Below are positions 3,425 to 52,463 of a stretch of 64,000 nucleotides of DNA, piece after piece. This stretch comes from Acidobacteria bacterium Ga0077522. Its GTDB lineage: Bacteria; Acidobacteriota; Vicinamibacteria; Vicinamibacterales; Vicinamibacteraceae. A program made the translations under genes and the position numbers. The stretch is taken from contig LNDN01000011.1 of the NCBI GenBank assembly GCA_001464065.1, positions 2,231 through 66,230 on the forward strand. The letters are read 5' to 3'. How positions within the stretch are numbered: position 1 is the stretch's first letter; each line of letters starts with the position of its first letter. The notes under the pieces were generated by a model, which was not told where the DNA came from, searched no databases, and saw only the letters and a list, made by a program, of their open reading frames with translations.

Positions 3425-3757
3425 ATGGCTGGCTTGAAGCGGATTCGCAAGAACGACGAGGTCATCGTCATCGCCGGCAAGGATCGCGGCAAGCGTGGAC
3501 GTGTGACCCTGGTGGATGCCGATCGCAACCGGGTGGTGGTCGAGGGCTTGAACCTCGCCAAGCGGCACACGAAGCCGAACCCCCAGAAGCAGGTGCAGGG
3601 CGGCATCGTGGAACAGGAGGCGTCCATTCACGCCTCCAACGTGATGCTGGTGGACCCGGCCTCGGGCAAGCGCACCCGCGTGGGGATGCGCATCGAGAGC
3701 GACGGTCGCAAGGTCCGTGTCAGCCGACGCAAGGACGGCGGAGTGATCGACAAATGA
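3425..3757 (+). CDS. rplX: 50S ribosomal protein L24
   Basis: 110 aa; KOW motif [15 protein letters not shown]. Confidence 0.96.
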
Positions 3758-4296
3758 GCCGGCTGAAGGAGCGCTACACCGGTGAGGTGGCGCCCGCCCT
3801 GCAGAAGGAATTCGGGTACGCCAACGTGATGGCGATCCCGAAGATCACGAAGGTCGTGATCAACCTCGGGCTCGGCGAGGCCACCCAGAACGCGAAGATC
3901 GTGGACGTCGCGGCCGACGAACTCATGCGCATCGCGGGCCAGAAGCCCGTCGTGACGCGCGCGAAGAAGTCGATTGCCCAGTTCCGCGTCCGCCAGGGCA
4001 TGCCCATCGGGACGATGGTCACGCTGCGTGGCGAGCGGATGTTCGACTTCCTCGATCGCCTGATCTCGATGTCGCTGCCGCGGGTGCGCGACTTCCGGGG
4101 TATCCCGACGAAGGGCTTCGACGGGCGTGGCAACTACACGCTCGGGCTGAAGGACCAGCTGCTCTTCCCGGAAATCGACTACATGCGCGTGGACAAGCCG
4201 CGCGGCATGAACATCACCGTGGTCACCACGGCGAAGACCGACGAGGAATCGCGGCGCCTGCTGCAGCTCCTCGGATTCCCGTTCAGGCAGAGCTGA
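3754..4296 (+). CDS. rplE: 50S ribosomal protein L5
   Basis: 180 aa; ATGA overlap with the rplX stop; L5 core ...[16 protein letters not shown]... Confidence 0.97.
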
Positions 4297-4297
4297 C

Positions 4298-4483
4298 ATG
4301 GCGACAACCGCAAAGATTGCCAAGGAACACAAGGTCCAGAAGTTTCAGGTCCGCGCCCGCAACCGGTGCGGCCGCTGCGGCCGACCGCGGGCGTACATGC
4401 GCAAGTTCGCCCTGTGCCGTCTGTGTTTCCGTGAGCTCGCCCTGCGTGGCGAGGTCGCGGGTGTGACCAAGAGCAGCTGGTAA
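4298..4483 (+). CDS. rpsN: 30S ribosomal protein S14, short zinc-binding type
   Basis: 61 aa; [23 protein letters not shown] (CxxC...CxxC). Confidence 0.95.
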
Positions 4484-4607
4484 GCCACAGCAGGGCCGGG
4501 AGTGCAGGCCCGCGACGGTCGCATGACCGCCGGGAACCGCGCTGCCGTGGTGCGCAGGCCGAGGACCAGGGAGTCCCGTGCCGCGCCCGGCCCACCGAGG
4601 ACAAGGT

Positions 4608-5015
4608 ATGACTGACCCGATTGCCGACATGCTGACGCGGATTCGCAATGCCGTCCAGTCGCGCCACACGCGCGTGGACGTGCCCGTGTCGAAGCTGAAG
4701 CTCGAGATCGCCCGCATCCTGGAGGCCGAAGGCTACATCGGCGGCTTCAAGGTGATCGACCACCCGACCACCCCGGACTCGCCGCAGAAGGTGGTGCGGA
4801 TCGCCCTCAAGTACGGACCGCGCGGTGAACGCGTCATCTCCGGGCTCGAGCGCGTCAGCCGCCCCGGCCGCCGCGTCTACTTCGGCCGCGAGGCCGTCCC
4901 CACGGTGCTCGGCGGGCTCGGCACTGCGATCCTGACCACGTCGCAGGGCGTGATGACGGGACGCGAGGCGACCAAGGCCGGCGTCGGCGGCGAAGTGCTC
5001 TGCAACGTCTGGTAA
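4608..5015 (+). CDS. rpsH: 30S ribosomal protein S8
   Basis: ATG at 4608 inside ORF 4578..5015; [16 protein letters not shown]-terminus. Confidence 0.95.
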
Positions 5016-5027
5016 GGACTGAGGAAC

Positions 5028-5564
5028 ATGTCTCGAATTGGCAAGAAGCCGATCCCCGTCCCCAAGGGTGTGCAGGTCACGCTGAAGGACGGCCTGGTCG
5101 AGGTGAAGGGGCCCAAGGGCCAGTTGTCGCAGGTGCTGCCTCCGGGCGTCACGATGGTGCTCGAGGACGGCCAGATCGTCACGAGCATCAGCGAGGCGCG
5201 CGAGATGCGGAAGTTCCACGGCCTCGGCCGCACCCTGGTGGCCAATGCGGTCCAGGGCGTGTCGGAGGGGTTCAAGCGGGAACTCGACATCGTCGGCGTG
5301 GGCTACCGTGCCGAGGTGAAGGGCCGCGACGTGCACTTCGCGCTCGGGTATTCGCACCCGGTGGTCTTCCCGTTGCCGCAGGGCATCGACGTGGCCATCG
5401 AGAAGCTGACGCATCTCACGGTGACGGGCATCGACAAGCAGATGGTCGGCCAGGTGGCCGCCAACATGCGGTCGCTGCGCAAGCCGGACCCCTACAAGCA
5501 GAAGGGTGTCCGGTACACCGGCGAAGTGCTCAAGAAGAAGGCCGGCAAGGCCGGCGCGAAGTAA
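5028..5564 (+). CDS. rplF: 50S ribosomal protein L6
   Basis: 178 aa; MSRIGKKPIPVPKGV N-terminus. Confidence 0.97.
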   Translation: MSRIGKKPIPVPKGVQVTLKDGLVEVKGPKGQLSQVLPPGVTMVLEDGQIVTSISEAREMRKFHGLGRTLVANAVQGVSEGFKRELDIVGVGYRAEVKGRDVHFALGYSHPVVFPLPQGIDVAIEKLTHLTVTGIDKQMVGQVAANMRSLRKPDPYKQKGVRYTGEVLKKKAGKAGAK

Positions 5565-5589
5565 CGCGCGCTGAAGCGGAGAAGCTGCC

Positions 5590-5964
5590 GTGAAGATCGA
5601 AACCAAGAAGGACCGACGCGAGCGCATCCGCCTGCGCCTGCGCAAGAAGCTGAGCGGTGAAGCGGTACGGCCGCGGGTCGCCGTGTTCCGCAGCGTGGCG
5701 CACATCTACGTCCAGGCCATCGACGATGCCAGCGGTACGACCGTGGCGTCGGCGAGCACGACCGAGGCGGCCGTGAAGGGCCAGCTCGCCGAGGGCGAGC
5801 GGGGCGGCAACGTCAAGGGGGCGGCCGCCATCGGCCGCATCCTGGCCGAGCGGCTCAAGGAGAAGGGCATCACCCGTGTCGTGTTCGACCGCGGCGGGTT
5901 CCTGTACCACGGGCGCGTGCGCGCCGTCGCCGAAGCCGCGCGCGAAGCCGGCCTCGAGTTCTGA
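5590..5964 (+). CDS. rplR: 50S ribosomal protein L18
   Basis: 124 aa, GTG start; [20 protein letters not shown] and [13 protein letters not shown] motifs. Confidence 0.96.
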
Positions 5965-6735: not shown

Positions 6736-6765
6736 GGCCTTCGGCCTTCGGCCCTGGGCCTTGGG
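6736..6765. repeat. Tandem heptamer array (GGCCTTN) x4
   Basis: ggccttc ggccttc ggccctg ggccttg, 13 nt after the rpmD stop; an inverted GAAGGCC copy lies at 6772-6778. Confidence 0.9.
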
Positions 6766-6816: not shown

Positions 6817-7257
6817 ATGGATTTGAGCGATCTCAAGCCAGCCAAGGGTGCGACCCACGCCAGCAAGCGCGTGGGCCGTGGCCAGGGGTCGGGCAATGGC
6901 AAGACGGCCGGGCGAGGCCACAAGGGCGCCAAGTCGCGCTCGGGCTTCAAGCGCAAGCGCGGGTTCGAGGGCGGCCAGATGCCGCTGCACCGACGCCTGC
7001 CCAAGCGCGGCTTCACGAACATCTTCCGCAGCGAGTACGCGGTGATCAACCTCGACCAGCTCGAAGCGCTGTTCGAGGCCAACACCGACGTGACGCCGGA
7101 GGTCCTGCATGGTCAGGGGCTGGCGCAGGGCACCCAGAAGATCAAGGTGCTCGGCCGCGGCGAACTGACCAAGACGCTCAACGTCAAGGCCCACAAGTTC
7201 AGCGGGGCGGCCGCGCAGAAGATTCAGGCGGCCGGCGGCACCGTCGAGAGCCTGTAG
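6817..7257 (+). CDS. rplO: 50S ribosomal protein L15
   Basis: 146 aa; [20 protein letters not shown] motif. Confidence 0.97.
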
Positions 7258-14836: not shown

Positions 14837-14842
14837 AGCGCC

Positions 14843-14898
14843 CTGAGCCGTGAGCCCTGAGCCATCGGTGCCGAGCCGAGAGCCCTGAGCCCAGAGCC
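14843..14898. repeat. Tandem heptamer array (NTGAGCC), about 8 units
   Basis: ctgagcc gtgagcc ctgagcc atcggtgcc gagcc gagagcc ctgagcc cagagcc; fills the spacer between convergent genes. Confidence 0.9.
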
Positions 14899-14902
14899 CT
14901 GG

Positions 14903-18052: not shown

Positions 18053-18156
18053 CCTCGAGGGGGAAAAGAGCTACACGCCCGCGATGCTATGCCAGAGCCG
18101 TGACGCGAACAAGGGGCGGACGGCTCGGCATTCGCCAGGCCGCCCGCCCCCTGGTC

Positions 18157-18189
18157 GCGAATGCCGCGATGCCGCGAATGCCGAATGCC
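18157..18189. repeat. Tandem array (GCGAATGCC-like, 7-9 nt units)
   Basis: gcgaatgcc gcgatgcc gcgaatgcc gaatgcc; an inverted copy GGCATTCGCC lies at 18127-18136. Confidence 0.85.
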
Positions 18190-18190
18190 G

Positions 18191-18254
18191 GAAGGACGAA
18201 GGCCCAAGGCCCAAGGCCCAAGGCCCAGAACCCAAGGCCCAGGCGCCGAAGGCC
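18191..18254. repeat. Tandem heptamer array (CAAGGCC) x9
   Basis: gaaggac gaaggcc caaggcc caaggcc caaggcc cagaacc caaggcc caggcgc cgaaggcc; ends 5 nt from the permease stop codon. Confidence 0.92.
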
Positions 18255-28738: not shown

Positions 28739-28773
28739 GTCTCAGGGCTCAAGTCTCAAGTCTCGGGGTTCAG
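28739..28773. repeat. Tandem heptamer array (GTCTCAR) x5
   Basis: gtctcag ggctcaa gtctcaa gtctcgg ggttcag, starting 1 nt after the pilT stop. Confidence 0.85.
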
Positions 28774-28791
28774 GACGATCGGTGTGTTGAC

Positions 28792-28822
28792 GAAGGCCCA
28801 CGGCCCAAGGCCCACGGCCCAC
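28792..28822. repeat. Tandem heptamer array (CAMGGCC) x4
   Basis: gaaggcc cacggcc caaggcc cacggcc cac, immediately upstream of pilC. Confidence 0.85.
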
Positions 28823-28838
28823 TGTGAAGGATGACGTG

Positions 28839-30047
28839 ATGCAGGCTTTTGCATTTTCCGGACGGACCCGCGCGGGTGAGACCGTCAGCGGCGAGCGGCA
28901 GGCCGATTCGCTCGAGGCGGCAGTCGCCTCGCTGCGCCGCGAGCAGATCCTGATCACGCGCATCGACCCGGTCAAGGCCAAGGCCGCCAAGGCCGCGGCC
29001 AAGCCCGGGGGCAAGGTGCCGGCCAAGAGCCTGGCCATCTTCACGCGTCAGTTCAGCGTGATGATCGATGCCGGCCTGCCGCTGGTGCAGTGCCTCGACA
29101 TCCTCGGGCGGCAGGAGCCGAACCCGAAGTTCGCCGCCACCATCCTCAAGACCCGCGAGGACGTCGAGAGCGGCATGTCGCTGGCCGACGCGATGCGCAA
29201 GCATCCGCGCACGTTCGACGCCCTGTTCACCAACATGATCCAGGCGGGCGAGGCCGGCGGCATCCTCGACACGATTCTGAAGCGGCTGGCGACCTACATC
29301 GAGAAGAACGTCAAGCTGATCTCGCAGGTCAAGTCGGCGATGATCTACCCGGTCGCGGTCATCGTCATCGCCGCACTCGTGGTGTCGGTGATCCTGTGGA
29401 AGGTCATCCCGACCTTCGCGCAGATGTTCGCCGGTCTCGGCGCCAAGCTGCCGCTGCCGACCCGCATCGTCATCGCGATGAGCAACGGGCTGGTCACCTA
29501 CGGTCCGATCATCATCATGGCCATCGCCGCGGTCATCTTCGCGGTGCGCACGTACTACAAGACCAACCAGGGACGGCATGTCATCGACGGGCTGCTGCTG
29601 CGGGCGCCCATCCTCGGCCTGATCCTCCGCAAGGTGGCCGTGGCGCGCTTCTGTCGCACGCTGTCGACGCTGATCAGCTCCGGCGTGCCGCTGCTCGATG
29701 GCCTCGAGATCACGGCCAAGACCGCCGGCAACGCCATCATCGAGGACGCCATCATGGAGACCCGCTCGAGCATCGAGCGCGGCGAGACGGTGTCCAAGCC
29801 CCTGCAGGACACCAAGGTGTTCCCGCCGATGGTCACGCAGATGATCGGCGTCGGTGAGGCGACCGGTGCACTCGACATGATGCTGGCCAAGATCGCCGAC
29901 TTCTACGAAGACGAGGTCGACACCGCCGTGGCCGGCCTGCTGACGCTGCTCGAGCCGATCATGATCTCGTTCCTCGGCGTCATCGTCGGTGGCATCGTCA
30001 TCTCGATGTACCTGCCGATCTTCGACCTCATCTCGCAGCTGACCTAG
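28839..30047 (+). CDS. pilC: Type IV pilus platform protein PilC
   Basis: GspF-family duplicated domain. ATG at 28839 is preferred (AAGGA 7 nt upstream); GTG at 28824 is possible. Polytopic protein ending ISMYLPIFDLISQLT. Confidence 0.92.
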   Translation: MQAFAFSGRTRAGETVSGERQADSLEAAVASLRREQILITRIDPVKAKAAKAAAKPGGKVPAKSLAIFTRQFSVMIDAGLPLVQCLDILGRQEPNPKFAATILKTREDVESGMSLADAMRKHPRTFDALFTNMIQAGEAGGILDTILKRLATYIEKNVKLISQVKSAMIYPVAVIVIAALVVSVILWKVIPTFAQMFAGLGAKLPLPTRIVIAMSNGLVTYGPIIIMAIAAVIFAVRTYYKTNQGRHVIDGLLLRAPILGLILRKVAVARFCRTLSTLISSGVPLLDGLEITAKTAGNAIIEDAIMETRSSIERGETVSKPLQDTKVFPPMVTQMIGVGEATGALDMMLAKIADFYEDEVDTAVAGLLTLLEPIMISFLGVIVGGIVISMYLPIFDLISQLT

Positions 30048-30049
30048 CG

Positions 30050-31756
30050 ATGGCGATGCCGCAGATGGTGCCCGTCCCACCTGGTACCCCGGCGCCCTGG
30101 CCACCGCGGCCAGGGGGGCCGGCCCTCGTCTGGCTGGCCGGGCTTCGCGCCCTCGTGGCGGTGGCGCTGCTGGCGCCCCTGGCGGCCTTCACCGCCGGGC
30201 AGGGCCAACTCTCGCAGGCTGCCTGGCTGGCGCTGTTGCCGCTGGCGCCCCTCGCCAACAGTGCGCTCGGGCTGTTGCTCGGGCCCCGGCTGTCGCCGCG
30301 GGGCCTCACCCTGCAGTTCCTCGCCGATGCCCTCGTGGTGCTGGCGGTGGTCTGGAGCACGGGGGGCCTGCTGAGCGCCTACACGCCCCTGATGCTCCTG
30401 CCCGTGCTGGCCGCCAGCGTGCTCGGTGGCCGGCGTGCCGGCATGCGTGCGGCCGGCGTGCTCGGCACCGGGGTCGTGGTGCTGTCGGCCGTGCAGTACG
30501 GCTGGCTGCCCGCACCGACGGCGCTCCGTGATCCGCTGCAGGTCGCGCTGTTGCCGCCGCTCCCACTGACGGCCTATACGCTGGCCGCCAACGTCGGCGG
30601 CTTCGTGGCCACGGCCCTGCTGGTGGGGCATCTGTCCGAGTCGCTCAGTCGCACCGGCGCCGACCTGGCGCGAGCGACCACGAGCCTTGCCGATCTCACC
30701 ACGCTGAGCCAGCGCGTCATCGACAGCATGACCGGCGGGCTGATCGTCACCGACGCGCACGGTGGCGTCGTCCTCTTCAACAGGACCGCCGAGACCATCA
30801 CCGGCCGACGCGCCGAGGATGTCCTCGGCGAGCCTGTCGACCGCGTCCTGCCGCTGCCGGCGGGCGAGTCCGACGGTGGGATCCCGGTTCGTCTCGAGTG
30901 CTCGTTCACGCGCGTCGATGGCAGCGTGATCGAACTCGGCGCCACGGTGGCCCCGCTGCTCGGCGGCGGGGGGCAGCGTGCGGGGCAGCTGGTCACCTTC
31001 CAGGACCTCACGCTGATCAAGCAGCGCGAGGCGGAGCGGCAGCGGCAGGAGCGTCTTGCCGCCGTCGGCGAGATGGCGGCCGGCATCGCGCACGAGATCC
31101 GCAATCCGCTGGCGTCGATGAGCGGGTCCATCCAGTTGCTGCGTCACGAGCTGACGCTGCGCGACGACCAGGCGACGCTGCTGGACATCGTCATGCGCGA
31201 GTCGCAGCGCCTCAACGACATCATCAAGAACTTCCTGTCGTATGCCGGACCGCAGCGCGTCAGCCGCTCGCGGGTGGACGTGGCCTGCCTCGTCACCGAG
31301 GTCGGGGCGTTGCTGCAGCAGCAGGCGCAGGGGCCCGGGGTCGTCACCATTCGCGTCGATGCGCCCGCACCGGTCTTCCACGACGTGGACGAGGCGCAGC
31401 TGCGCCAGGTGCTGTGGAACCTCGCCACCAACGGCATCAAGGCGATGCCGGAGGGGGGCGTGCTCCATCTCGGCGTGGTGGCCGTGCCGGACTCGGGCGG
31501 TGCGTCGCTGCAGGTGTCGGTGCGTGACGAAGGGGTCGGCATGGCGCCGGCCGACATCGAGCGCATGTTCCAGCCGTTCCAGAGCGGCTTCCGGCAGGGC
31601 AGCGGTCTCGGCCTGGCGATCGTCCGCCGCATCGTCACCGATCACGGCGGTCGCGTCAGTGTGCGGTCGACACCCGGGGCAGGCACCGAAGTGACGGTGT
31701 CGCTGCCGGCGCCGGTCGCGCGTCCCCAGATCGTGCCCATCCTCAGGAGTGCCTGA
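30050..31756 (+). CDS. pilS: Membrane sensor histidine kinase, PilS-type
   Basis: 568 aa; multi-TM N-terminus, PAS region, H-box AHEIRNPLAS, HATPase N/G boxes; immediately upstream of pilR. Confidence 0.85.
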   Translation: MAMPQMVPVPPGTPAPWPPRPGGPALVWLAGLRALVAVALLAPLAAFTAGQGQLSQAAWLALLPLAPLANSALGLLLGPRLSPRGLTLQFLADALVVLAVVWSTGGLLSAYTPLMLLPVLAASVLGGRRAGMRAAGVLGTGVVVLSAVQYGWLPAPTALRDPLQVALLPPLPLTAYTLAANVGGFVATALLVGHLSESLSRTGADLARATTSLADLTTLSQRVIDSMTGGLIVTDAHGGVVLFNRTAETITGRRAEDVLGEPVDRVLPLPAGESDGGIPVRLECSFTRVDGSVIELGATVAPLLGGGGQRAGQLVTFQDLTLIKQREAERQRQERLAAVGEMAAGIAHEIRNPLASMSGSIQLLRHELTLRDDQATLLDIVMRESQRLNDIIKNFLSYAGPQRVSRSRVDVACLVTEVGALLQQQAQGPGVVTIRVDAPAPVFHDVDEAQLRQVLWNLATNGIKAMPEGGVLHLGVVAVPDSGGASLQVSVRDEGVGMAPADIERMFQPFQSGFRQGSGLGLAIVRRIVTDHGGRVSVRSTPGAGTEVTVSLPAPVARPQIVPILRSA

Positions 31757-31759
31757 GAC

Positions 31760-33220
<1,461 letters not shown>

Positions 33221-33223
33221 GGG

Positions 33224-33277
33224 CGGGAACCGGGAACCGGGAACCGGGAGTCGGCAACCGAGTCGGGAGTCGGGAGT
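33224..33277. repeat. Tandem heptamer array (CGGGARY), about 8 units
   Basis: cgggaac x3, cgggagt, cggcaac, cgagt, cgggagt x2, starting 4 nt after the pilR stop. Confidence 0.9.
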
Positions 33278-33321
33278 CGCCGTTTCTCGTCCGCCGTCCT
33301 CGCCCGCCCCCCCTCCTCGCT

Positions 33322-33455
33322 CCTACCTCCGCCCCCCCTTCTCGGTCCTCCGTCCTCTCTCCTACCTCCGTCCTCCCTCCTCGATCCTCGGTCCTCCGCC
33401 CTCTCTCCTACCTCCGTCCTCTTTCCTCGGTCCTCCGTCCTCCTCCGTCGCTCTC
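33322..33455. repeat. Three direct repeats (39, 46 and about 48 bp) forming a polypyrimidine (+ strand) tract
   Basis: CCTACCTCCG at 33322, 33361 and 33407, interleaved with CTCGGTCCTCCG at 33341, 33387 and 33426. Confidence 0.9.
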
Positions 33456-33624
33456 CTGGCTGACAACTTCCGGCACTCCAGGGACCGTGAGTTGTCGCTC
33501 CTGACAGGATTCGTCACCGGTTCACCGATACTGGTGAGGGCCGTTGACGGCCAGCCGACCCTGACTATCGTCAGATTGAGTGGTTTTCGGCCGGTCTGGG
33601 CCGATCCGCGCGTTTGGGCACGAG

Positions 33625-33640
33625 TGGCACCGCGCTTGCT
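33625..33640 (+). promoter_or_regulatory. Sigma-54 (-24/-12) promoter of pilA
   Basis: TGGCAC-cgcgc-TTGCT with exact GG-N10-GC spacing, about 90 nt upstream of the pilA ATG and downstream of pilR. Confidence 0.8.
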
Positions 33641-33729
33641 ATAGGGAATGGCACGCAGGTTACGGGGGAAGCGGGTTGCGACCTCCACACACGGGCCACA
33701 CGCAGGACGCTCAGAGGAGACAGGACATC

Positions 33730-34308
33730 ATGAAGATTCGGAACACCAAGGGCTTCACGCTCATCGAACTGCTCATCGTCGTTGCCATCATCGGCATCAT
33801 CGCCGCCATCGCCATCCCGGGCCTGCTGCGCGCCCGCATGTCGGGCAACGAGGCCTCGGCCATCGGCTCGCTGCGCTCGATCAACAGCGGCCAGGCCACC
33901 TACGCCGCCAGCTGCGCGGCCGGCGGCTTCGCGCAGGACCTGAACGACCTGGTGCTGGCCCCGGTGGGCAGCACGGCGGCCTTCATCAGCCCCGACCTCG
34001 ACCCGGCCAACAACGCCGCGGGCGGTGCCATCGGTGCCCTGCCCAACAGCTCGGGCAAGAGCGGCTATGACGTCGGTCTGCAGGGCTCGGCAGCCGGTGT
34101 CCAGGTGACGCTCGCGGCCAACACCTGCAACAACTCGGGTACCGCGGCGTGGTCCGGCTACTACGCCCTCGCGATTCCGCAGCAGGTCGGCTCGACCGGT
34201 CAGCGCTCCTTCGGGACCGACGAGCGCGGCACGGTGTTCCAGGACACGTCGGGCGCGGCCATCGCGGAAGGCTTCGCGGTTGGCGGCACGGTGACCCCGG
34301 TCGAGTAA
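33730..34308 (+). CDS. pilA: Type IV major pilin
   Basis: 192 aa from the ATG at 33730; prepilin leader MKIRNTKG/FTLIELLIVVAIIGIIAAIAIP with Glu at +5; two Cys. Confidence 0.9.
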   Translation: MKIRNTKGFTLIELLIVVAIIGIIAAIAIPGLLRARMSGNEASAIGSLRSINSGQATYAASCAAGGFAQDLNDLVLAPVGSTAAFISPDLDPANNAAGGAIGALPNSSGKSGYDVGLQGSAAGVQVTLAANTCNNSGTAAWSGYYALAIPQQVGSTGQRSFGTDERGTVFQDTSGAAIAEGFAVGGTVTPVE

Positions 34309-34331
34309 CACGGGACGCCCCCTCGGATGGA

Positions 34332-34367
34332 CCAGAAGGCCGGCCTTGCGCCGGCCTTCTGGCGTTT
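34332..34367 (+). terminator. Stem-loop terminator after pilA
   Basis: CCAGAAGGCCGGC (34332-34344), loop CTTGC, GCCGGCCTTCTGG (34350-34362), then CGTTT. Confidence 0.6.
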
Positions 34368-34436
34368 GAGGGCGCCGCATCTGCGGCAGGGACGGCGGCG
34401 AATGCGCGCCTGCATCAGCGCGAGGCGGCTCGTCCT

Positions 34437-34452
34437 TGGCGTACTTCTTGCT
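34437..34452 (+). promoter_or_regulatory. Second sigma-54 (-24/-12) promoter
   Basis: TGGCGT-acttc-TTGCT with GG-N10-GC spacing, 37 nt upstream of the second pilin ATG; GGAGG SD at 34474-34478. Confidence 0.65.
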
Positions 34453-34488
34453 TTGAAAACGAGCATGACGCCAGGAGGGCTCTGTCCC

Positions 34489-34995
34489 ATGCATGCCGCT
34501 CGTCGCACCCGAGGATTCACGCTCATCGAACTGCTGATTGTCGTTGCCCTCATCGGCATCCTGTCGGCCATGGCCGCGCCCTTCCTCATCGCGGCCCGCT
34601 CGTCGGCCAACGAGGCTTCGGCGATTCAGTCGCTGCGCACCCTCGTCAGTGCCCAGACCACGTTCTCCAACGTGTGCGGCAACGGTGGCTACACGACGTC
34701 GCTGAACACCCTGGTCACCGAGCAGTTCGCCTCGCCCAATCTCGACATCACCCCCAAGAGCGGCTACAACTTCCAGCTCGTCGCCGCCCTCGGCTCCAAC
34801 GCGGCCCCCGCGGACTGCACCGGACAGCCGACACAGACGGGGTATTACTTCCGGGGGGAGCCGCTGGCCGCCAACTCGGGCCGCCGCGGGTTCGCCACCA
34901 ACCACGTCGGCACCATCTGGCAGGACACCACGGGCGTCGCGCCGCCGGAGCCCTTCGCACCAGCGGCGACGATCTCGCCGCTCGACGCGCACTGA
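34489..34995 (+). CDS. Type IV pilin paralog
   Basis: 168 aa from the ATG at 34489; leader MHAARRTRG/FTLIELLIVVALIGILSAMAAP; shares the ...NEASAI.SLR... and C.(A/N)GG(F/Y) motifs with pilA; two Cys. Confidence 0.88.
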   Translation: MHAARRTRGFTLIELLIVVALIGILSAMAAPFLIAARSSANEASAIQSLRTLVSAQTTFSNVCGNGGYTTSLNTLVTEQFASPNLDITPKSGYNFQLVAALGSNAAPADCTGQPTQTGYYFRGEPLAANSGRRGFATNHVGTIWQDTTGVAPPEPFAPAATISPLDAH

Positions 34996-45003: not shown

Positions 45004-46107
45004 TCAGGCCAGGCCGATCTCGGCCAGGCCCACGCGCACCTGCGGTTCGTCGACATCGGTGGCGATGGTGGTGTCGCCGATGCGGGTCGGCAGCACGAAA
45101 TGCAGGGTGCCTGCGACGACCTTCTTGTCGCGCCGCGTGGCCGCCAGGATGGCGTCCACATCGAGGCCGCCGATGGCCGGCAGCGGCCCCATGTGGTCCA
45201 GCAGACGCACCAGCTCGGCATGCTCGGTCGCCGACCACGTACCGCGGGCCACCGCGATCGCCGACGCCGCCTTCATGCCGTAGGCGACGGCTTCCCCATG
45301 ACGCAGGAGCCGGTAGTTGGTCACCGCCTCGAGGGCGTGACCGATGGTGTGGCCGAAGTTGAGGATGCGTCGAAGCCCATCCTCGCGCTCGTCCTTGGTC
45401 ACCACGTCCGCCTTGATGGCGCAGCAGTCGGTGATGACCGGCAGCAGCGCCGACGGTGAGCCATCGAGCAGGGCATCCATCGTCTCGGCGCAGCGGGTGA
45501 ACAGCGACGGGGAGGCGATGACGCCGTACTTGACCACCTCGTAGAGGCCGGCGCGCAACTCGCGCCGACTGAGCGTGGTGAGGACGGTCGGGTCGACGGC
45601 GACGAGCGCCGGCTGGTGGAAGGCGCCCAGCAGGTTCTTGCCGAGGCGATGGTTCACCCCGACCTTGCCCCCGATGGCACTGTCGGTCTGCGCCACCACC
45701 GTGGTCGGCACGTGCACGAGCCGGATGCCCCGCAGGTAACTGGCGGCGGCAAAGCCGGCCATGTCGCCAATCACGCCGCCGCCCACCACCACCAGCACGG
45801 CCTTGCGATCGATGCCGCGGACGACCAGCGCGTCGTGGATCCGACCCAGCGTCGCCATCGTCTTGGCCTTCTCGCCGTCGGGCACGAGGACCGGGGCGAA
45901 CTCCTCCCGGTCGGCGACGCCGAGCCCGTGGCGCACGGCGGCGCCATGCAATCCCCACACCTGCGGGCTCGACACCACCACGAGACGGGAGGCGCCGGGA
46001 CAGGCCTCGGCCACGATGGCGTCGAGTGACGACAGCAGGCCGGGGGCGATCAGGATGCGCGACACCTGGGCGGACCGGGTGTGGACCTCGAGGACGTGAG
46101 GGGACAT
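45004..46107 (-). CDS. aroB: 3-dehydroquinate synthase
   Basis: 367 aa from the ATG at 46107, inside the 977-aa track ORF; GGGVIGDMAGFAAASYLRGI, GKNLLGAFHQP, NFGHTIGHALE motifs. Confidence 0.92.
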   Translation of the reverse strand: MSPHVLEVHTRSAQVSRILIAPGLLSSLDAIVAEACPGASRLVVVSSPQVWGLHGAAVRHGLGVADREEFAPVLVPDGEKAKTMATLGRIHDALVVRGIDRKAVLVVVGGGVIGDMAGFAAASYLRGIRLVHVPTTVVAQTDSAIGGKVGVNHRLGKNLLGAFHQPALVAVDPTVLTTLSRRELRAGLYEVVKYGVIASPSLFTRCAETMDALLDGSPSALLPVITDCCAIKADVVTKDEREDGLRRILNFGHTIGHALEAVTNYRLLRHGEAVAYGMKAASAIAVARGTWSATEHAELVRLLDHMGPLPAIGGLDVDAILAATRRDKKVVAGTLHFVLPTRIGDTTIATDVDEPQVRVGLAEIGLA

Positions 46108-46263
46108 GATCGGCAAAAGAGCCGGGAAATCCGGCTCCGAGCGGGTGGTAGGATAGCAGGGTCCCGGCGGCGCCGAGGCCGAGCGCCGTGCAACGGGCAC
46201 GGCCGCCGGTGTCCCCCGAACAGGCCCGCGTCGACGCGACGGGCAGGAGCAGACGCCCTTCTG

Positions 46264-47829
46264 GTGACCACGCAGCCTGATTTCCTGGTGCTCGGCAGCG
46301 GCATTGCTGCGCTCCGCGCGGCGCTGGCGCTCGCGAGCCGGGGATCCGTGTGCGTCCTGACCAAGGGCGAGCCCGATCAGGGCAGCACCGGCTGGGCCCA
46401 GGGCGGCATCGCGGTCGCGATGGGCGACGACGACTCGCCTCGCCTGCATCTCGAGGACACGCTGGCGGCGGGCGATGGGTTGTGCGAGCCGGACGCCGTG
46501 CGGGCACTGGTCGGCGAGGGGCCGCGCTACGTGTCGGAACTGCTCGCGTGGGGCGCCCGGTTCGACCGCGACGCCCAGGGGCGGCCGGCGCCGACCCGTG
46601 AGGCCGCCCACAGCGTGCGCCGTGTGCTGCATGCCGACGACGCGACGGGCCGCGAAATCAGTCGCGTGCTGCACGAGCAGGTGGCGGCACTGCCGGCCAT
46701 CACCATCATCGACCACGCCATCGTCACCGAGTTGCTGTGCGAGGGCGGCGTGTGCGTCGGCGCGGCGTATCGCGATGCGCAGGACCGTCGGCACGAAGTG
46801 CGGGCCCGGGCCACGTTGCTGGCGACCGGTGGCGCGGGGCAGGTGTTCGCGCAGACCACCAATCCGACCGTGACGACCGGCGACGGCATGGCGATGGCGT
46901 TCGAGGTCGGCGCCGAGGTGGCCGATCTCGAGTTCGTCCAGTTCCACCCGACGGTACTCGATGTCCCGGGGCGGCCGCGGTTCCTGCTGTCCGAGGCGCT
47001 CCGTGGCGAAGGCGCGCGGCTGCTGAACGTGGCGGGTGAGGCCTTCATGGGACGCTACGAGTCGGCCGCGGAGCTGGCGCCTCGCGATCGCGTCGCTCGA
47101 GCCATCGTCCGCGAACGGCAGCGGACCGGTGGGCCGATCAGCCTGTCGATGGCGCATCTGCGGGACCTGGATGTCCACGCGAGGTTCCCGCAGATCTCCG
47201 AGGCGTGCCGCGAGGCTGGTCTCGACCTGGCGCGTGACCCGGTGCCCGTCAGTCCGGCGGTGCATTACGTGATGGGCGGCGTGGTCACCGACCTCGATGG
47301 GCGGACGTCGCTGCCCGGGCTCTACGCGGCAGGCGAGGTGGCGTGTACGGGCGTGCACGGGGCCAACCGTCTGGCGAGCAACTCGCTGCTCGAGGGCCTC
47401 GTCTTCGGGGCGCGCGCCGGCGCGGTGATGGGCGAGCCCCCGCGCGTGCGCGATGGCTGGGGCCCGGGCCGTCTCGTGGCGTGTGCGCCGGCGGTCCCCG
47501 GTCCGGCGGTGGAGGCCCCGGCGGATCTCGACGTCGCCACCGTCCGCCTGCGCGCCTGGCGCGACCTCGGGCTCGTCCGCACGCCCGAAGGGCTGCAGGC
47601 GGCCGATGCCTGGTTCACGCAGGCCCGGGCCGCCTGCGTCGCATCGACGGCCGGCGATCTGGCCTCGGCCCAGCTGCGCAGTCTGGTCACCGTGGCGTAT
47701 CTCATGAGCCGCGCGGCGTTGCGGCGCGAAGAGAGCCGCGGCGGGCATTACCGGACGGATTTTCCCGAGCGCCACGACGACACGTGGGGCCATCACTGCA
47801 GCGACGTGCTGCAGCGCACAGCAGAGTGA
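46264..47829 (+). CDS. nadB: L-aspartate oxidase
   Basis: 521 aa from the GTG at 46264; FAD fold DFLVLGSGIAALRAA, RESRGGHYRTDFP C-terminal motif. Confidence 0.9.
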   Translation: MTTQPDFLVLGSGIAALRAALALASRGSVCVLTKGEPDQGSTGWAQGGIAVAMGDDDSPRLHLEDTLAAGDGLCEPDAVRALVGEGPRYVSELLAWGARFDRDAQGRPAPTREAAHSVRRVLHADDATGREISRVLHEQVAALPAITIIDHAIVTELLCEGGVCVGAAYRDAQDRRHEVRARATLLATGGAGQVFAQTTNPTVTTGDGMAMAFEVGAEVADLEFVQFHPTVLDVPGRPRFLLSEALRGEGARLLNVAGEAFMGRYESAAELAPRDRVARAIVRERQRTGGPISLSMAHLRDLDVHARFPQISEACREAGLDLARDPVPVSPAVHYVMGGVVTDLDGRTSLPGLYAAGEVACTGVHGANRLASNSLLEGLVFGARAGAVMGEPPRVRDGWGPGRLVACAPAVPGPAVEAPADLDVATVRLRAWRDLGLVRTPEGLQAADAWFTQARAACVASTAGDLASAQLRSLVTVAYLMSRAALRREESRGGHYRTDFPERHDDTWGHHCSDVLQRTAE

Positions 47830-47839
47830 CAAGACGACG

Positions 47840-49360
47840 ATGAGCGAGCAGCAGCAGGGCAAAGGGCAGCAGCAGGGCAAGGGCCAGCAACAGGGCAAGT
47901 CCGGCGGCAAGGGCGACGCGTTCGTCACGGCGATCACGTCACAGGCGGAGGACTACTCCCGGTGGTACCTCGACGTGGTGCTCCGCGCGGAACTGGCCGA
48001 CTACACGCCGGGGCTCAAGGGCTGCATGACGATCCGGCCGTACGGCTATGCGATCTGGGAGCGCATCCAGTTGCTGCTGGATGCCCGCCTGAAGGCCACC
48101 GGACACGTCAACGCGTACTTCCCGCTGTTCATCCCCGAGAGTCTCCTGATGAAGGAGGCCGAGCACGTGGAGGGCTTCGCGCCGGAGGTGGCGTGGGTCA
48201 CGCACGGCGGCAAGGAGAAGCTCGAGGAGCGGCTCGCCATCCGGCCGACGTCGGAGGTGATCATCGGGACGATGTACGCCAAGTGGCTGCAGTCGTGGCG
48301 CGACCTGCCCATCCTGATCAACCAGTGGGCCAATGTCGTCCGCTGGGAGAAGGTGACGCGTCCCTTCCTCCGCACGACCGAGTTCCTCTGGCAGGAAGGT
48401 CACACCGTGCACGAGACGGAGGCCGAGGCCGAGGAAGAGACGCGCAAGATCCTCGGTGTCTACAAGGAGTTCGTCGAGACCGAGCTCGCGATGCCGGTGA
48501 TCGACGGGCAGAAGAGCGACGCCGAGAAGTTCGCCGGCGCGGCCAAGACCTACTCCATCGAGGCGCTGATGGGCGACGGGCGGGCGCTGCAGGCCGGCAC
48601 GTCGCACAACCTCGGGCAGAACTTCGCCAAGGCCTTCGACATCAAGTTCCAGGGCCGCGACAAGGTCGAGCAGCATGCCTGGACGACGTCGTGGGGCGTC
48701 TCGACGCGGCTCATCGGCGGCTTGATCATGGTGCACGGTGACGACAGCGGGCTCGTGCTGCCGCCCAACATCGCGCCCTACCAGGTGGTGATCGTGCCCA
48801 TCCCGCGTGGCGACTGGCGCGAGACGGTGCTTCCGCACGCCCAGGCGATCAAGGCGCAGCTGGTGGCGGCCGGGGTGCGCGTGATGCTCGACGACCGCGA
48901 TGCCTACACGCCGGGCTGGAAGTTCGCCGACTGGGAGATGCGCGGCGTCCCCGTGCGACTCGAAATCGGGCCGAAGGACATCGAGAAGCAGCAGGTCGTG
49001 CTGGCCCGTCGTGACACGCGCGAGAAGGCGTTCGTCGCGATGGACGGGCTGGTCGCCCACGTCCAGGGCTGGCTGGCCGACATCCAGGCGTCGCTGTTCG
49101 CGAAGGCGCAGCAGGTGCGCGAGGAGCGCACCCACTACACGGAGAGTTACGAGGAGTTCAAGGCGCTGATGGCGGGCACCCGTCCCGGACTCGTCTATGC
49201 CCCGTGGTGCGACGACGCGACTGTCGAGGCGCAGGTCAAGACCGAGACGCAGGCGACGATTCGCAACTATCCGTTCGTGGCGCCGCCCGCCGAGGGCAAG
49301 GTCTGCTTCGTCACCGGGCGTCCGGCCACCGTCGTGGCCTGCTTCGCCAAGGCGTACTAG
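47840..49360 (+). CDS. proS: Proline-tRNA ligase (archaeal/eukaryote-like short form) with repetitive N-terminal extension
   Basis: 506 aa; class II motifs (FRTTEFLWQEGHT, GTSHNLGQNF); (QQQGKG) x3 N-terminus; C-terminal ...ACFAKAY. Confidence 0.9.
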   Translation: MSEQQQGKGQQQGKGQQQGKSGGKGDAFVTAITSQAEDYSRWYLDVVLRAELADYTPGLKGCMTIRPYGYAIWERIQLLLDARLKATGHVNAYFPLFIPESLLMKEAEHVEGFAPEVAWVTHGGKEKLEERLAIRPTSEVIIGTMYAKWLQSWRDLPILINQWANVVRWEKVTRPFLRTTEFLWQEGHTVHETEAEAEEETRKILGVYKEFVETELAMPVIDGQKSDAEKFAGAAKTYSIEALMGDGRALQAGTSHNLGQNFAKAFDIKFQGRDKVEQHAWTTSWGVSTRLIGGLIMVHGDDSGLVLPPNIAPYQVVIVPIPRGDWRETVLPHAQAIKAQLVAAGVRVMLDDRDAYTPGWKFADWEMRGVPVRLEIGPKDIEKQQVVLARRDTREKAFVAMDGLVAHVQGWLADIQASLFAKAQQVREERTHYTESYEEFKALMAGTRPGLVYAPWCDDATVEAQVKTETQATIRNYPFVAPPAEGKVCFVTGRPATVVACFAKAY

Positions 49361-50546: not shown

Positions 50547-52256
50547 TTACTGCGTCACGCGGACCGTGAGGGCGGCGCGGCGGTTGAGGCGGCGCGTTTC
50601 CTCGCGGCTGTTGTCGTGCTTCGGCCGCTCTTCGCCGTAGCTCACCGTGCGGATGCGGTCCGCACCGATGCTGCGCGAGCCGAGGTAGTCACGCACCGAG
50701 TAGGCGCGACGCTCGCCGAGGGCGAGGTTGTACTCCGCCGTCCCGATGTTGCAGGTGTGGCCTTCGACCTCGAGCTTCAGCTCGGGGTTGTCCTGCAGCG
50801 CCTTGATGGCCTCGTCGAGGATGCGGGTGGCTTCGGGACGCAGCGTGTAGCGGTCGAAGTCGAAGTGCACGTCCTCGAACGTGTAGTCCTTGATGGCCGG
50901 CTTGACGACCTGGATGGTGACCGTGTCGCTCACCGAGCCGCCCTTGCCGTCGGTGACGGTGACGGTGCACGGGACGGGACCTTCCTGCATCGGGGCCGTC
51001 CACAGCGTCTCGCGGTTGCCCGGCTGGGCGACCGTGCCGGCGGGGCAGGACCACTTGTAGGTCAGCGGATCGCCGTCCGGGTCGCTCGCATCGGCCGTGA
51101 TCGTCGAGCTCTTGCCGACTTCCACGGTGCACGGGTTGCAGCGCGCCTTGACGGTCGGCGGGCGGTTCTCGGCCACCGCCGGCGGCGGCGGGGGCGGCGG
51201 GGGCGGCGGCGGGGCCACGTACGCGGTCGCGACGCCGGGGTGATAGCCGATGCGGAACTGGAGGCTCGCGCGGTCCCAGCTCTCGTCTTCCTGCAGCGGG
51301 TTGAGGCTGCTGCGCGAGTCGTGCTGCAGCGCATAGGTTGCGCCGGCGCCCACGAAGAAGCCCTTCGGGCTGAAGTACGTCGCGCCGATGGCGGCGTCGA
51401 GCGGGCTCCGGAGCGCCCACGTCCCGTTGCTCGTGGAGCCATCGAAGGCCACGAGACCATTCGACGTGATGCTGTCCTCGAAGTAGCGCTCGCCGAACAA
51501 CTCGGCGGTCAGCTTCAGACCGCTGCGGGTCGGGAAGCCGAGACCGACGCCGTAGCGGAGCCCGTTGCTCTGGTCGGTCCGCTCCGCATCGGCACGGGCG
51601 GCAAAGCCGCCGTACGCCGAGATGTCGACCTTTTCGTTGACTTCCTTGCTGACGATGTAGTCGACGAAGAAGTCCGCCTGGCCGGAACTCGTGCCCTTGT
51701 CGGCCGAGCCGGTGGGGAGCTTGACCATGGCCTTCAGGGCCATCGCCACCGGCGCGCCCTTGGCCTGCGACAGCAGGTTGACCTTGCCGCCGACGAAGAG
51801 GTCACCGAAGGTCGAACCCGACCACGGCTGCCTGACGAGCGGGTAGTTGTTGGTCGGACCACCCGCATCGCTTCCCGGCAGGAAGACCGGGCGGATGTCG
51901 CGGTCGATGCGGGTGACCGCAGAGAGGGCCGCGAACAACTCGGCACGACCGCCGACGCCGTACCCGAACGTCAGCGGGAACATGCCGATGTCCGTGAAGC
52001 CTTCCTGGCGGTCGAAGTTCGTGTAGTAGGCGCTGGCCGACCAGCGACCCGCCGGCAGGACCTCGCCGAGCGGCACGAACCACAGGCCTGTGTCGCCCTG
52101 GAACGTCGGGGCGGCAGACCGGGTTTCGGTCACCACCAGGCTCGCCGCAGGGGCCGGGGCGGGGGTGGTCGCCGCCGGCTGCTGCGCGAACCCTGCAGGC
52201 GCAGCCATCGCCAGACCCATCGTGGCGGCGAGACCTACCCTGAAGAGGCGTGTCAT
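50547..52256 (-). CDS. OmpA-family outer membrane protein (beta-barrel, poly-Pro linker, PKD/Ig-like domain, OmpA_C)
   Basis: 569 aa from the ATG at 52256; signal peptide ...APAGFAQQ; run of 11 Pro; DPDGDPLTYKW; OmpA_C motif TCNIGTAEYNLALGERRA. Confidence 0.88.
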   Translation of the reverse strand: MTRLFRVGLAATMGLAMAAPAGFAQQPAATTPAPAPAASLVVTETRSAAPTFQGDTGLWFVPLGEVLPAGRWSASAYYTNFDRQEGFTDIGMFPLTFGYGVGGRAELFAALSAVTRIDRDIRPVFLPGSDAGGPTNNYPLVRQPWSGSTFGDLFVGGKVNLLSQAKGAPVAMALKAMVKLPTGSADKGTSSGQADFFVDYIVSKEVNEKVDISAYGGFAARADAERTDQSNGLRYGVGLGFPTRSGLKLTAELFGERYFEDSITSNGLVAFDGSTSNGTWALRSPLDAAIGATYFSPKGFFVGAGATYALQHDSRSSLNPLQEDESWDRASLQFRIGYHPGVATAYVAPPPPPPPPPPPAVAENRPPTVKARCNPCTVEVGKSSTITADASDPDGDPLTYKWSCPAGTVAQPGNRETLWTAPMQEGPVPCTVTVTDGKGGSVSDTVTIQVVKPAIKDYTFEDVHFDFDRYTLRPEATRILDEAIKALQDNPELKLEVEGHTCNIGTAEYNLALGERRAYSVRDYLGSRSIGADRIRTVSYGEERPKHDNSREETRRLNRRAALTVRVTQ

Positions 52257-52317
52257 GTGAGTGTCCCTCAAATCTGTGAGCTGAAACGAACTCGAGTACA
52301 AAAATTGCACTCCGCGC

Positions 52318-52346
52318 ATATTACCGGGGAGGTGCACAGGCGTCAA
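52318..52346 (-). promoter_or_regulatory. Sigma-70-type promoter of the OmpA-family gene
   Basis: On the - strand: TTGACG, 17-nt spacer, TAATAT. Lies in the only AT-richer stretch of the spacer, about 60 nt upstream of the ATG. Confidence 0.55.
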
Positions 52347-52463
52347 ACTTTTCGCACGCGTTAGACCAAGGGTGTAGCCACCCTCGATCCACCGCATTCG
52401 CAAGGACCTGATTGCAAGAGCGTCGCCAGCGATCCGATACCGGTTCCTGACACGTTCCGGAGG

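Follow-up and report, generated by a model that had tools for sequence, protein, structure and literature searches.

This analysis concerns a polypyrimidine tract between pilR and pilA, the genes for a sigma-54 enhancer-binding response regulator and for the major type IV pilin, in 64,000 nt of Acidobacteria bacterium Ga0077522 (contig LNDN01000011.1, positions 2,231 to 66,230), a stretch which is called the window here and whose first letter is position 1. Together with the heptamer arrays that precede it, the tract very probably constitutes one compound, hypermutable simple sequence repeat (SSR) which occupies dispensable DNA separating the pilR stop codon from the probable PilR enhancer, and which falls in the known class of intergenic heptameric repeats located after stop codons. 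By the same reading, the repeat lies outside the enhancer and promoter of pilA and does not set their spacing. Its likeliest effect, to which a probability of about 45% is assigned, would be the loading of Rho on the 3′ untranslated region (UTR) of pilR.

Structure of the repeat region

The repeat region and the gene which it follows comprise these features:

31760-33220, + strand: pilR, sigma-54 enhancer-binding response regulator (Pfam Response_reg, Sigma54_activat, AAA_lid_14 and HTH_8)
33218-33220: TAG stop codon of pilR; the repeat region begins about 4 nt downstream
33224-33279, + strand: G-rich heptamer arrays, (GGGAACC)3 followed by GGGAGTC/GGCAACC units, found with period 7 by Tandem Repeats Finder (TRF)
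33285-33457, + strand: polypyrimidine (CT) tract, a degenerate heptamer-derived array with a 39/46-nt higher-order unit (composition, TRF, autocorrelation)

The 173 nt of the tract contain 99 C, 49 T, 21 G and 4 A (86% pyrimidine). It is the sole 170-nt stretch in the window with more than 70% pyrimidine, peaking at 0.85 where the mean is 0.49 and the standard deviation 0.048 (z about 7.6), and its excess of C over G amounts to 0.55 per 78 nt, compared with at most 0.32 elsewhere in the window on either strand. Two motifs alternate along it. Motif A (CCTACCTCCG) is located at 33322, 33361 and 33407 and motif B (CTCGGTCCTCCG) at 33341, 33387 and 33426, with A-to-B spacings of 19, 26 and 19 nt and B-to-A spacings of 20 and 20 nt; no further copy of either motif occurs within the window. 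The composition count and motif search thereby confirm the tract, its two motifs, their coordinates and their spacings as they were given in a preliminary description of this DNA.

TRF resolves the tract into periods of 39 and 46 with about three copies (scores 147–171) and also gives a degenerate period-7 reading, (CCTCCGT) x 17.7, with 66% matches. The autocorrelation of the tract shows maxima at lags 7, 14, 21 and 28 as well as at 18, 25, 32, 39 and 46, and the 39-nt unit can therefore be described as four heptamers plus one 11-mer (4 x 7 + 11). The 46-nt middle copy is the 39-nt unit with one extra heptamer, which had been recorded earlier as a 7-nt insertion.

Several searches for other known elements were made across this region. 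Rfam was searched with 32800-34000 at E values up to 10 and with the entire window at the gathering score, giving chance-level matches or none, a search for tRNA and tmRNA genes found none, and a scan of 33000-34500 revealed no intrinsic terminator.

Allelic variation within the species

Variation was assessed among the contigs that encode the exact PilR or PilA of the window; 12 different ones were found, belonging to NCBI, ENA, JGI and Logan assemblies. Seven complete spacer alleles, measured from the pilR stop codon to CTGACAAC, are 170, 179, 190, 200, 233, 239 and 260 nt long, and partial variants were found too. The flanks of the spacer contain no indels in any of the allele contigs, and their mismatches number 0–2 in the 271 nt downstream, 0–5 in 579 nt (to the end of pilA) and 0–8 in the last 618 nt of pilR. 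The species thus offers a natural allelic series, with CT parts of 116–202 nt and 4–11 heptamers, on an otherwise identical background.

The heptamer part, which spans 31–79 nt in the complete alleles, is the most copy-number-variable portion, and it varies independently of the CT part. Contigs L090 and L091 have one CT part in common and differ by three heptamers; likewise, the CT parts of the window and of L088 are alike save for one substitution, with a difference of three heptamers. Identical alleles recur in independent assemblies (the window allele in L089, the CT part of L090 in L091 and that of L093 in L094), which argues against an assembler artefact. Furthermore, scaffold L001 (ENA scaffold_3096) carries at 4462-5112 two different spacer alleles and a duplicated enhancer start with 10 N between them, suggesting that the scaffolder joined two co-existing haplotypes of one sample. 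Contigs end inside the spacer in 5 of the 12 cases, and the repeat explains the frequent breaks of metagenome contigs between pilR and pilA in this lineage. Its length very probably grows and shrinks via slipped-strand mispairing or unequal recombination.

Two open reading frames (ORFs) enter the tract, at 32404-33504 on the + strand and at 33362-33688 on the - strand. Coding was rejected for both because the alleles differ by 7-nt and other non-triplet indels. A scan of metagenome contigs with the pattern CTCTCTCCTACCTCCGYCCYC gave one match, which lies in an unrelated context without a repeat and was judged to be due to chance; this is weak evidence, since the set scanned evidently lacks the tract-bearing JGI contigs (L089–L091). 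One such contig, JGI 3300002461 AADWTP_10002513, was missed by the scan, the negative outcome of which hence does not show absence.

A conserved module between the repeat and the promoter

The interval from the end of the tract to pilA contains these features:

33460-33575: conserved dyad-rich module with GACA/GTCA motifs, probable PilR enhancer or upstream activating sequence (UAS) by conservation, symmetry and distance
33462-33468 and 33490-33496: dyad GACAACT/AGTTGTC of the module
33493-33496 and 33503-33506: dyad TGTC-N6-GACA of the module
33502-33506 and 33513-33516: dyad TGACA/GTCA of the module
33545-33549 and 33569-33573: dyad TGACG/CGTCA of the module
33561-33574: CTGAC-TATC-GTCAG
33625-33640, + strand: sigma-54 -24/-12 element TGGCAC-N5-TTGCT, its TGGCA and TTGCT columns invariant in a six-species alignment (A1)
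33730-34308, + strand: pilA, major type IV pilin of 192 aa (Pfam N_methyl)

The module at 33460-33575 is likely the PilR enhancer, an assignment made because of its conservation, its symmetry and its distance from the promoter. It is found in relatives with 83%, 72% and 60% PilR identity, in which it opens with the sequence that also delimits the alleles, followed by GTTGTCG-N5-TGACAGGAATCGTCA and by TGACG...CGTCA half-sites. In alignment A1, the GACA and GTCA columns are invariant, as is the AGGAGA...ATGAA start region of pilA. The module lies about 165 nt upstream of the -24/-12 element in the window, and its distance to the -24 position is 125–165 nt in nine of the ten relatives having both located (224 nt in L031). 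According to a study of PilSR in P. aeruginosa, PilR sites are characterized by TGT-N11-AGA and GTCT elements (PMC6058289), to which the module bears only a loose likeness.

The tract is situated upstream of this module and therefore lies outside the enhancer-promoter interval, so that changes in its length leave the enhancer-to-promoter geometry untouched. Indeed, the distance from the module to the ATG of pilA is 271 nt in all alleles. The setting between pilR and pilA and the -24/-12 element, as first described, were borne out by the Pfam domains and by TGGCAC-N5-TTGC. The suggestion that the tract occupies the place of an upstream activating region did not hold, as that place is filled by the dyad module. 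Sites of the NtrC family, including the PilR UAS, share with the tract a position upstream of a sigma-54 promoter, here directly after the activator gene. The expected dyads, conservation and distance of about 165 nt belong to the module, however, whereas the tract consists of direct repeats without dyads, as had been pointed out from the start: none are visible in it, and inverted repeats of length 12 or more are absent from 33150-33750. Nor is the tract conserved, being absent in relatives L007 and L011 and replaced by another sequence in L012. For the pilA promoter of this acidobacterium, the likely site of PilR action is hence relocated to the enhancer at 33460-33575, and the eye-catching tract is seen as a dispensable, fast-evolving repeat. 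Given its retention in relatives, the module is probably the PilR enhancer of acidobacterial pilA promoters.

A sigma-70-like sequence, TTGACG-16-TATCGT, is present at 33544-33571 (+ strand) within the enhancer-promoter interval, where it overlaps the conserved TGACG/CGTCA half-sites. It may be either a chance match or a secondary pilA promoter.

The pil locus in related bacteria

The host is, judging by sequence, a Luteitalea-like acidobacterium (Vicinamibacteria). Among species-representative genomes, its PilR matches best those of Luteitalea sp. metagenome-assembled genomes (MAGs), with 83% identity, then those of other Vicinamibacteria (55–72%) and of Thermoanaerobaculia (about 50%). The gene order in the window is pilC-pilS-pilR-[tract]-pilA, with a second pilin gene downstream of pilA, and the order of pilR, sigma-54 promoter and pilA is retained throughout Vicinamibacteria. 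The two genes further upstream are as follows:

28824-30047: pilC (Pfam T2SSF)
30050-31756: pilS

The spacer itself differs widely among relatives. L007, with 83% PilR identity, has none, and its enhancer begins 2 nt past the pilR stop codon, while the spacer of L011 measures 41 nt; orthologous promoters therefore work without the tract. L006 contains (GGGTACC)5 and a weakly C-rich stretch, and L010 contains (CGGGACT)n, after which the contig ends. In L012 (72% identity; 5416-5620), a G-rich 8-mer array is followed by a 130-nt (TCC)n-like tract with 92% pyrimidine, in the same place and with the same polarity as in the window. L020 has a C-rich, non-repetitive spacer of 300 nt. In L025 (5430-5530), (TAGCCTC)n is followed by inverted (GAGGCTA)n copies, which could form a long hairpin. 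The site 3′ of pilR is, as these comparisons indicate, a hot spot where short-period arrays with no sequence relationship to one another are found.

Across 666 kb of the relatives' loci, tracts reaching 78% purine or pyrimidine over 100 nt number three clear cases and a borderline one (L066). The three clear cases, in L012, L011 and L013, all belong to close relatives and are all heptamer-like. In L011, (TCCTTCG)n is located at 6934-7066, immediately 3′ of the stop codon of a pilin cluster. In L013, a Vicinamibacteria MAG, the interval between pilS and pilR contains a (CAGGAGA)n array (3700-3830, about 130 nt) that is purine-rich on the sense strand, and the pilS frame enters it.

Relation to known heptameric repeats

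Intergenic G-rich heptamer repeats have been reported in Xanthomonas (GGGAATC) and Nostoc (GGGGA(C/T)T), where arrays are often adjacent, with opposite polarity, and show “extensive length and sequence variation” among close relatives (Rehm et al., 2015; PMC4692102). The repeats have no known function, and an over-representation of heptamers is seen in non-pathogens whose genomes are large and high in GC; the same work cites the heptamers of cyanobacterial short tandemly repeated repetitive (STRR) sequences (PMC4692102).

The array downstream of pilR corresponds closely to the GGGNATC-type repeats. It has a 7-nt unit with a G3 run (GGGAACC, GGGAGTC), at least four units and a quadruplex motif; it is intergenic, 0–50 nt past a stop codon, with the coding strand as its G-rich strand; it adjoins an array of opposite polarity; and it varies widely in length and sequence among close relatives, with its flanking genes kept. 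The large, high-GC host genome and the lack of a known function are common to both. The CT tract fits the definition of a G-rich heptameric SSR unit only loosely, given its 66% period-7 matches and its - strand runs of GG only. The host here belongs to Acidobacteriota, several unrelated units take the place of one family-wide unit, and the CT tract is degenerate with a 39/46-nt higher-order unit. Since the CT tract and the first array are not reverse complements of each other, there is no clean inverted repeat, unlike in Xanthomonas and Nostoc. With the present repeat, the class of post-stop heptameric repeats described earlier in Xanthomonas and cyanobacteria is extended to Acidobacteriota.

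Within the window, heptamer arrays follow five stop codons including that of pilR, with five different units in the five arrays. The four others (starting at 6736, 14840, 18199 and 28795) are each located 4–60 nt 3′ of a stop codon. Short-period arrays elsewhere in the window are as follows:

6736-6762: heptamer array, unit GGCCTTC
14840-14901: heptamer array, unit GCCCTGA
18156-18183: 9-mer array, beside the following heptamer array
18199-18254: heptamer array, unit AAGGCCC
28740-28775: heptamer array, GTCTCAA-like units
28795-28822: heptamer array, unit GGCCCAC

One of these arrays occupies the entire gap between two convergent genes, and the array at 28795 is identical in three contigs of the same species. 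According to the preliminary description, a unit scattered genome-wide as a generic repeat would have spoken against any special tie to the pil genes. On this point the outcome is divided, as the 39-nt unit is unique in the window, while the class of post-stop heptamer arrays to which the repeat belongs is generic in this genome.

A possible Rho loading site in the pilR 3′ UTR

The preliminary description had considered the tract as a pilR 3′ UTR carrying anti-Shine-Dalgarno (anti-SD) motifs. The UTR part of this idea is plausible and comes nearest to what is now the best explanation. RNA polymerase leaving pilR would transcribe the tract as an untranslated 3′ UTR of 116–202 nt, and a C-rich, G-poor, unstructured RNA with dense YC dimers would be a substrate for Rho loading. 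The tract would then act as a Rho utilization (rut) site, ending pilSR transcripts within or just ahead of the enhancer, and termination at this place would prevent polymerases that read through from reaching the sigma-54 promoter and the enhancer with its bound PilR. Allele length could modulate the efficiency of termination. As only composition matters for a rut role, the sequence would be free to change.

Published descriptors of Rho loading sites are C>G bubbles, YC dimers at regular spacing, little secondary structure and an optimum of 60–90 nt (PMC6144790; PMC12360218). The region shows a C>G bubble of 306 nt at 33233-33538 which peaks at 55% in a 78-nt window. YC dimers occupy 89 of 172 tract positions, compared with a window-wide frequency of 0.157. 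The + strand RNA folds poorly (z = +2.65), with 199 of 200 shuffles folding at least as well. The tract starts 65 nt past the pilR TAG, in sequence for which coding is excluded by the 7-nt indels among alleles. It thus resembles rut sites in being C>G-skewed, YC-rich, unstructured, untranslated and longer than the 60–90 nt optimum, as well as in its position, which directly follows a stop codon and precedes the next promoter. It differs from natural E. coli rut sites in a far more extreme skew and in being built of a hypervariable tandem repeat; Rho action on it is, moreover, predicted from sequence. A hairpin between the G-rich array and the CT tract was considered and rejected: the minimum-energy fold pairs them, but its energy is worse than that of shuffles, as the z value above indicates.

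Seven relatives have a spacer of 60 nt or more, and in four of them the highest, or nearly the highest, excess of C over G in the whole locus on the pilR sense strand falls in that spacer. Work of Guerin et al. in 1998 reportedly dealt with an artificial polypyrimidine repeat as a Rho-dependent terminator; if Rho indeed loads on the pilR 3′ UTR, the tract would be a natural counterpart of it.

Several observations weigh against Rho loading and against a selected terminator role. At 81 loci, analysed with a GC3-based gene caller (GC3, the GC content of third codon positions), the C content of 3′ flanks does not in general exceed that of 5′ flanks. Extreme flanks are C-rich versus G-rich in 11 versus 7 cases among 3′ flanks and in 9 versus 5 among 5′ flanks, with no clear surplus of C-rich ones and no difference between the two sides. 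All other gene ends of the window lack a comparable tract. It follows that this lineage does not use such tracts as its general terminator design. Since a sister species is devoid of the spacer, termination there cannot be essential. The purine-rich array of L013 has a polarity opposite to that of the window tract. Finally, any CT-rich seed would, once expanded, give such a composition without selection.

A further elaboration of Rho loading, by which the repeat would be a copy-number-tunable terminator with slippage heritably altering pilSR read-through into the PilR enhancer and pilA, is improbable. If it were true, subpopulations would show different basal levels of pilin expression, independent of PilR, or different occupancy of the enhancer, and the repeat would be a contingency locus acting via termination efficiency, not via promoter spacing or reading frame.

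Alternative explanations

Neutrality is the rival that fares best, and it is possible though rather unlikely. The repeat would in this case be a slippage product in unconstrained spacer DNA that leaves the expression of pilR and pilA unaffected, and the bias between its strands an accident of the amplified seed. The absence or extreme shortness of the tract in close relatives, its hypervariability among strains, the presence of same-class arrays in other intergenic regions and the lack of a general C-rich bias in the 3′ flanks of the clade all agree with this, as does the fact that no function was found for the comparable repeats of Xanthomonas and Nostoc (PMC4692102). However, C-rich, unstructured and untranslated RNA of the length observed in the CT parts is expected on biophysical grounds to bind Rho, whether selected or not, and the same polarity recurs in L012, L006, L020 and L011, L013 being the opposite case.

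Non-B DNA is distinctly less probable. Here, a G-quadruplex (G4), i-motif or triplex arising from the arrays or the tract would pause polymerases or insulate pilR topologically from the enhancer. The coding strand does carry a canonical G3N4 quadruplex motif at 33220-33248 (GGGGCGGGAACCGGGAACCGGGAACCGGG), which is among only six canonical G3-L1-7 motifs in 64 kb, three of the six being heptamer arrays. GGGAATC-type heptamers form G4 in vitro, their complements give i-motif-like spectra, and the pairing of two arrays with opposite polarity recalls the convergent pairs of Xanthomonas (PMC4692102). Against this, G runs on the - strand of the tract itself do not go beyond GG and its C runs are short, and the G7/C7 runs of the window allele are lacking in the others. 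H-DNA, earlier proposed to tune promoter geometry, calls for an uninterrupted homopurine-homopyrimidine mirror repeat of about 15 bp or more; pure pyrimidine runs in the tract do not exceed 12 nt, mirror repeats with arms of at least 7 nt are absent from it, and changes in its length leave the 271-nt distance untouched, so that neither H-DNA nor a tuning of geometry is supported.

Two further canonical G3N4 quadruplex motifs are located on the - strand of other arrays (18203-18240 and 28797-28820). A G4 also lies upstream of Neisseria pilE (PMC4692102), and the present motif shares its position upstream of a pilin gene. It differs in that there is no sign of pilin variation and in that the motif is a generic heptamer array seen at other genes. 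Pilin antigenic variation of the Neisseria G4 type was accordingly rejected, as PilA is identical on 23 contigs.

The anti-SD part of the 3′ UTR idea is very unlikely to be right. CCUCC would pair with GGAGG-type sites, either in cis, masking the pilA site AGAGGAGA on read-through, or in trans, as an RNA derived from the 3′ UTR. The description of at least ten CCUCC motifs is accurate, with 11 CCTCC in the window allele; motif A includes ACCUCC, AGGAGA is conserved in the pilA leader, and the tract is on the sense strand of both pilR and pilA. Yet alleles with identical pilA contain anywhere from 3 to 19 such motifs, the tract is missing from sister species whose pilA leader is the same, and no terminator or processing signal defines a stable RNA. 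Any CU-rich RNA would be equally complementary, so that complementarity does not discriminate.

Simple-sequence contingency loci, with repeats in promoter spacers or at operator distances of genes for surface structures, occur in Neisseria and Haemophilus. A comparable role here, in which repeat number would alter pilA expression through the spacing or number of activator sites, or through PilR or another protein bound to the array, has very little to recommend it as a probability. The likeness lies in a tandem repeat beside a pilin gene, and thus a surface-structure gene, whose copy number varies among near-identical strains. Unlike the known loci, the present repeat is upstream of the enhancer and changes neither a reading frame nor any known spacing, as the enhancer-to-ATG distance is fixed; its units measure 7–46 nt instead of 1–5 nt, and the host is a soil bacterium. 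The lack of dyads in the tract and the activity of orthologous promoters without it count against bound protein as well, and further upstream the pilR coding sequence is the sole conserved element.

Least probable of all is the proposed CsrA/RsmA sponge, a - strand RNA which would match CsrB, RsmY and RsmZ in its dense GGA and GGAGG motifs, but for which the - strand of 33000-34500 offers no promoter-like or terminator-like site and Rfam no family match even at E values up to 10, whose almost pure-purine sequence cannot present GGA in hairpin loops (fold z 0.51, no better than shuffles), which is hypervariable and missing in sister species, and whose transcript would need a start site within the conserved enhancer and would extend antisense into pilR.

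Coding repeats elsewhere in the window

Two repeats within long ORFs were also recorded. A (CGG)11 run at 51180-51212 is located inside a long - strand ORF (50547-52403), and an 18-nt repeat, CAGCAGCAGGGCAAGGGC, is present in 2.8 copies at 47849-47899 inside the - strand ORF 45004-47937. Both are in-frame coding repeats which could vary in length.

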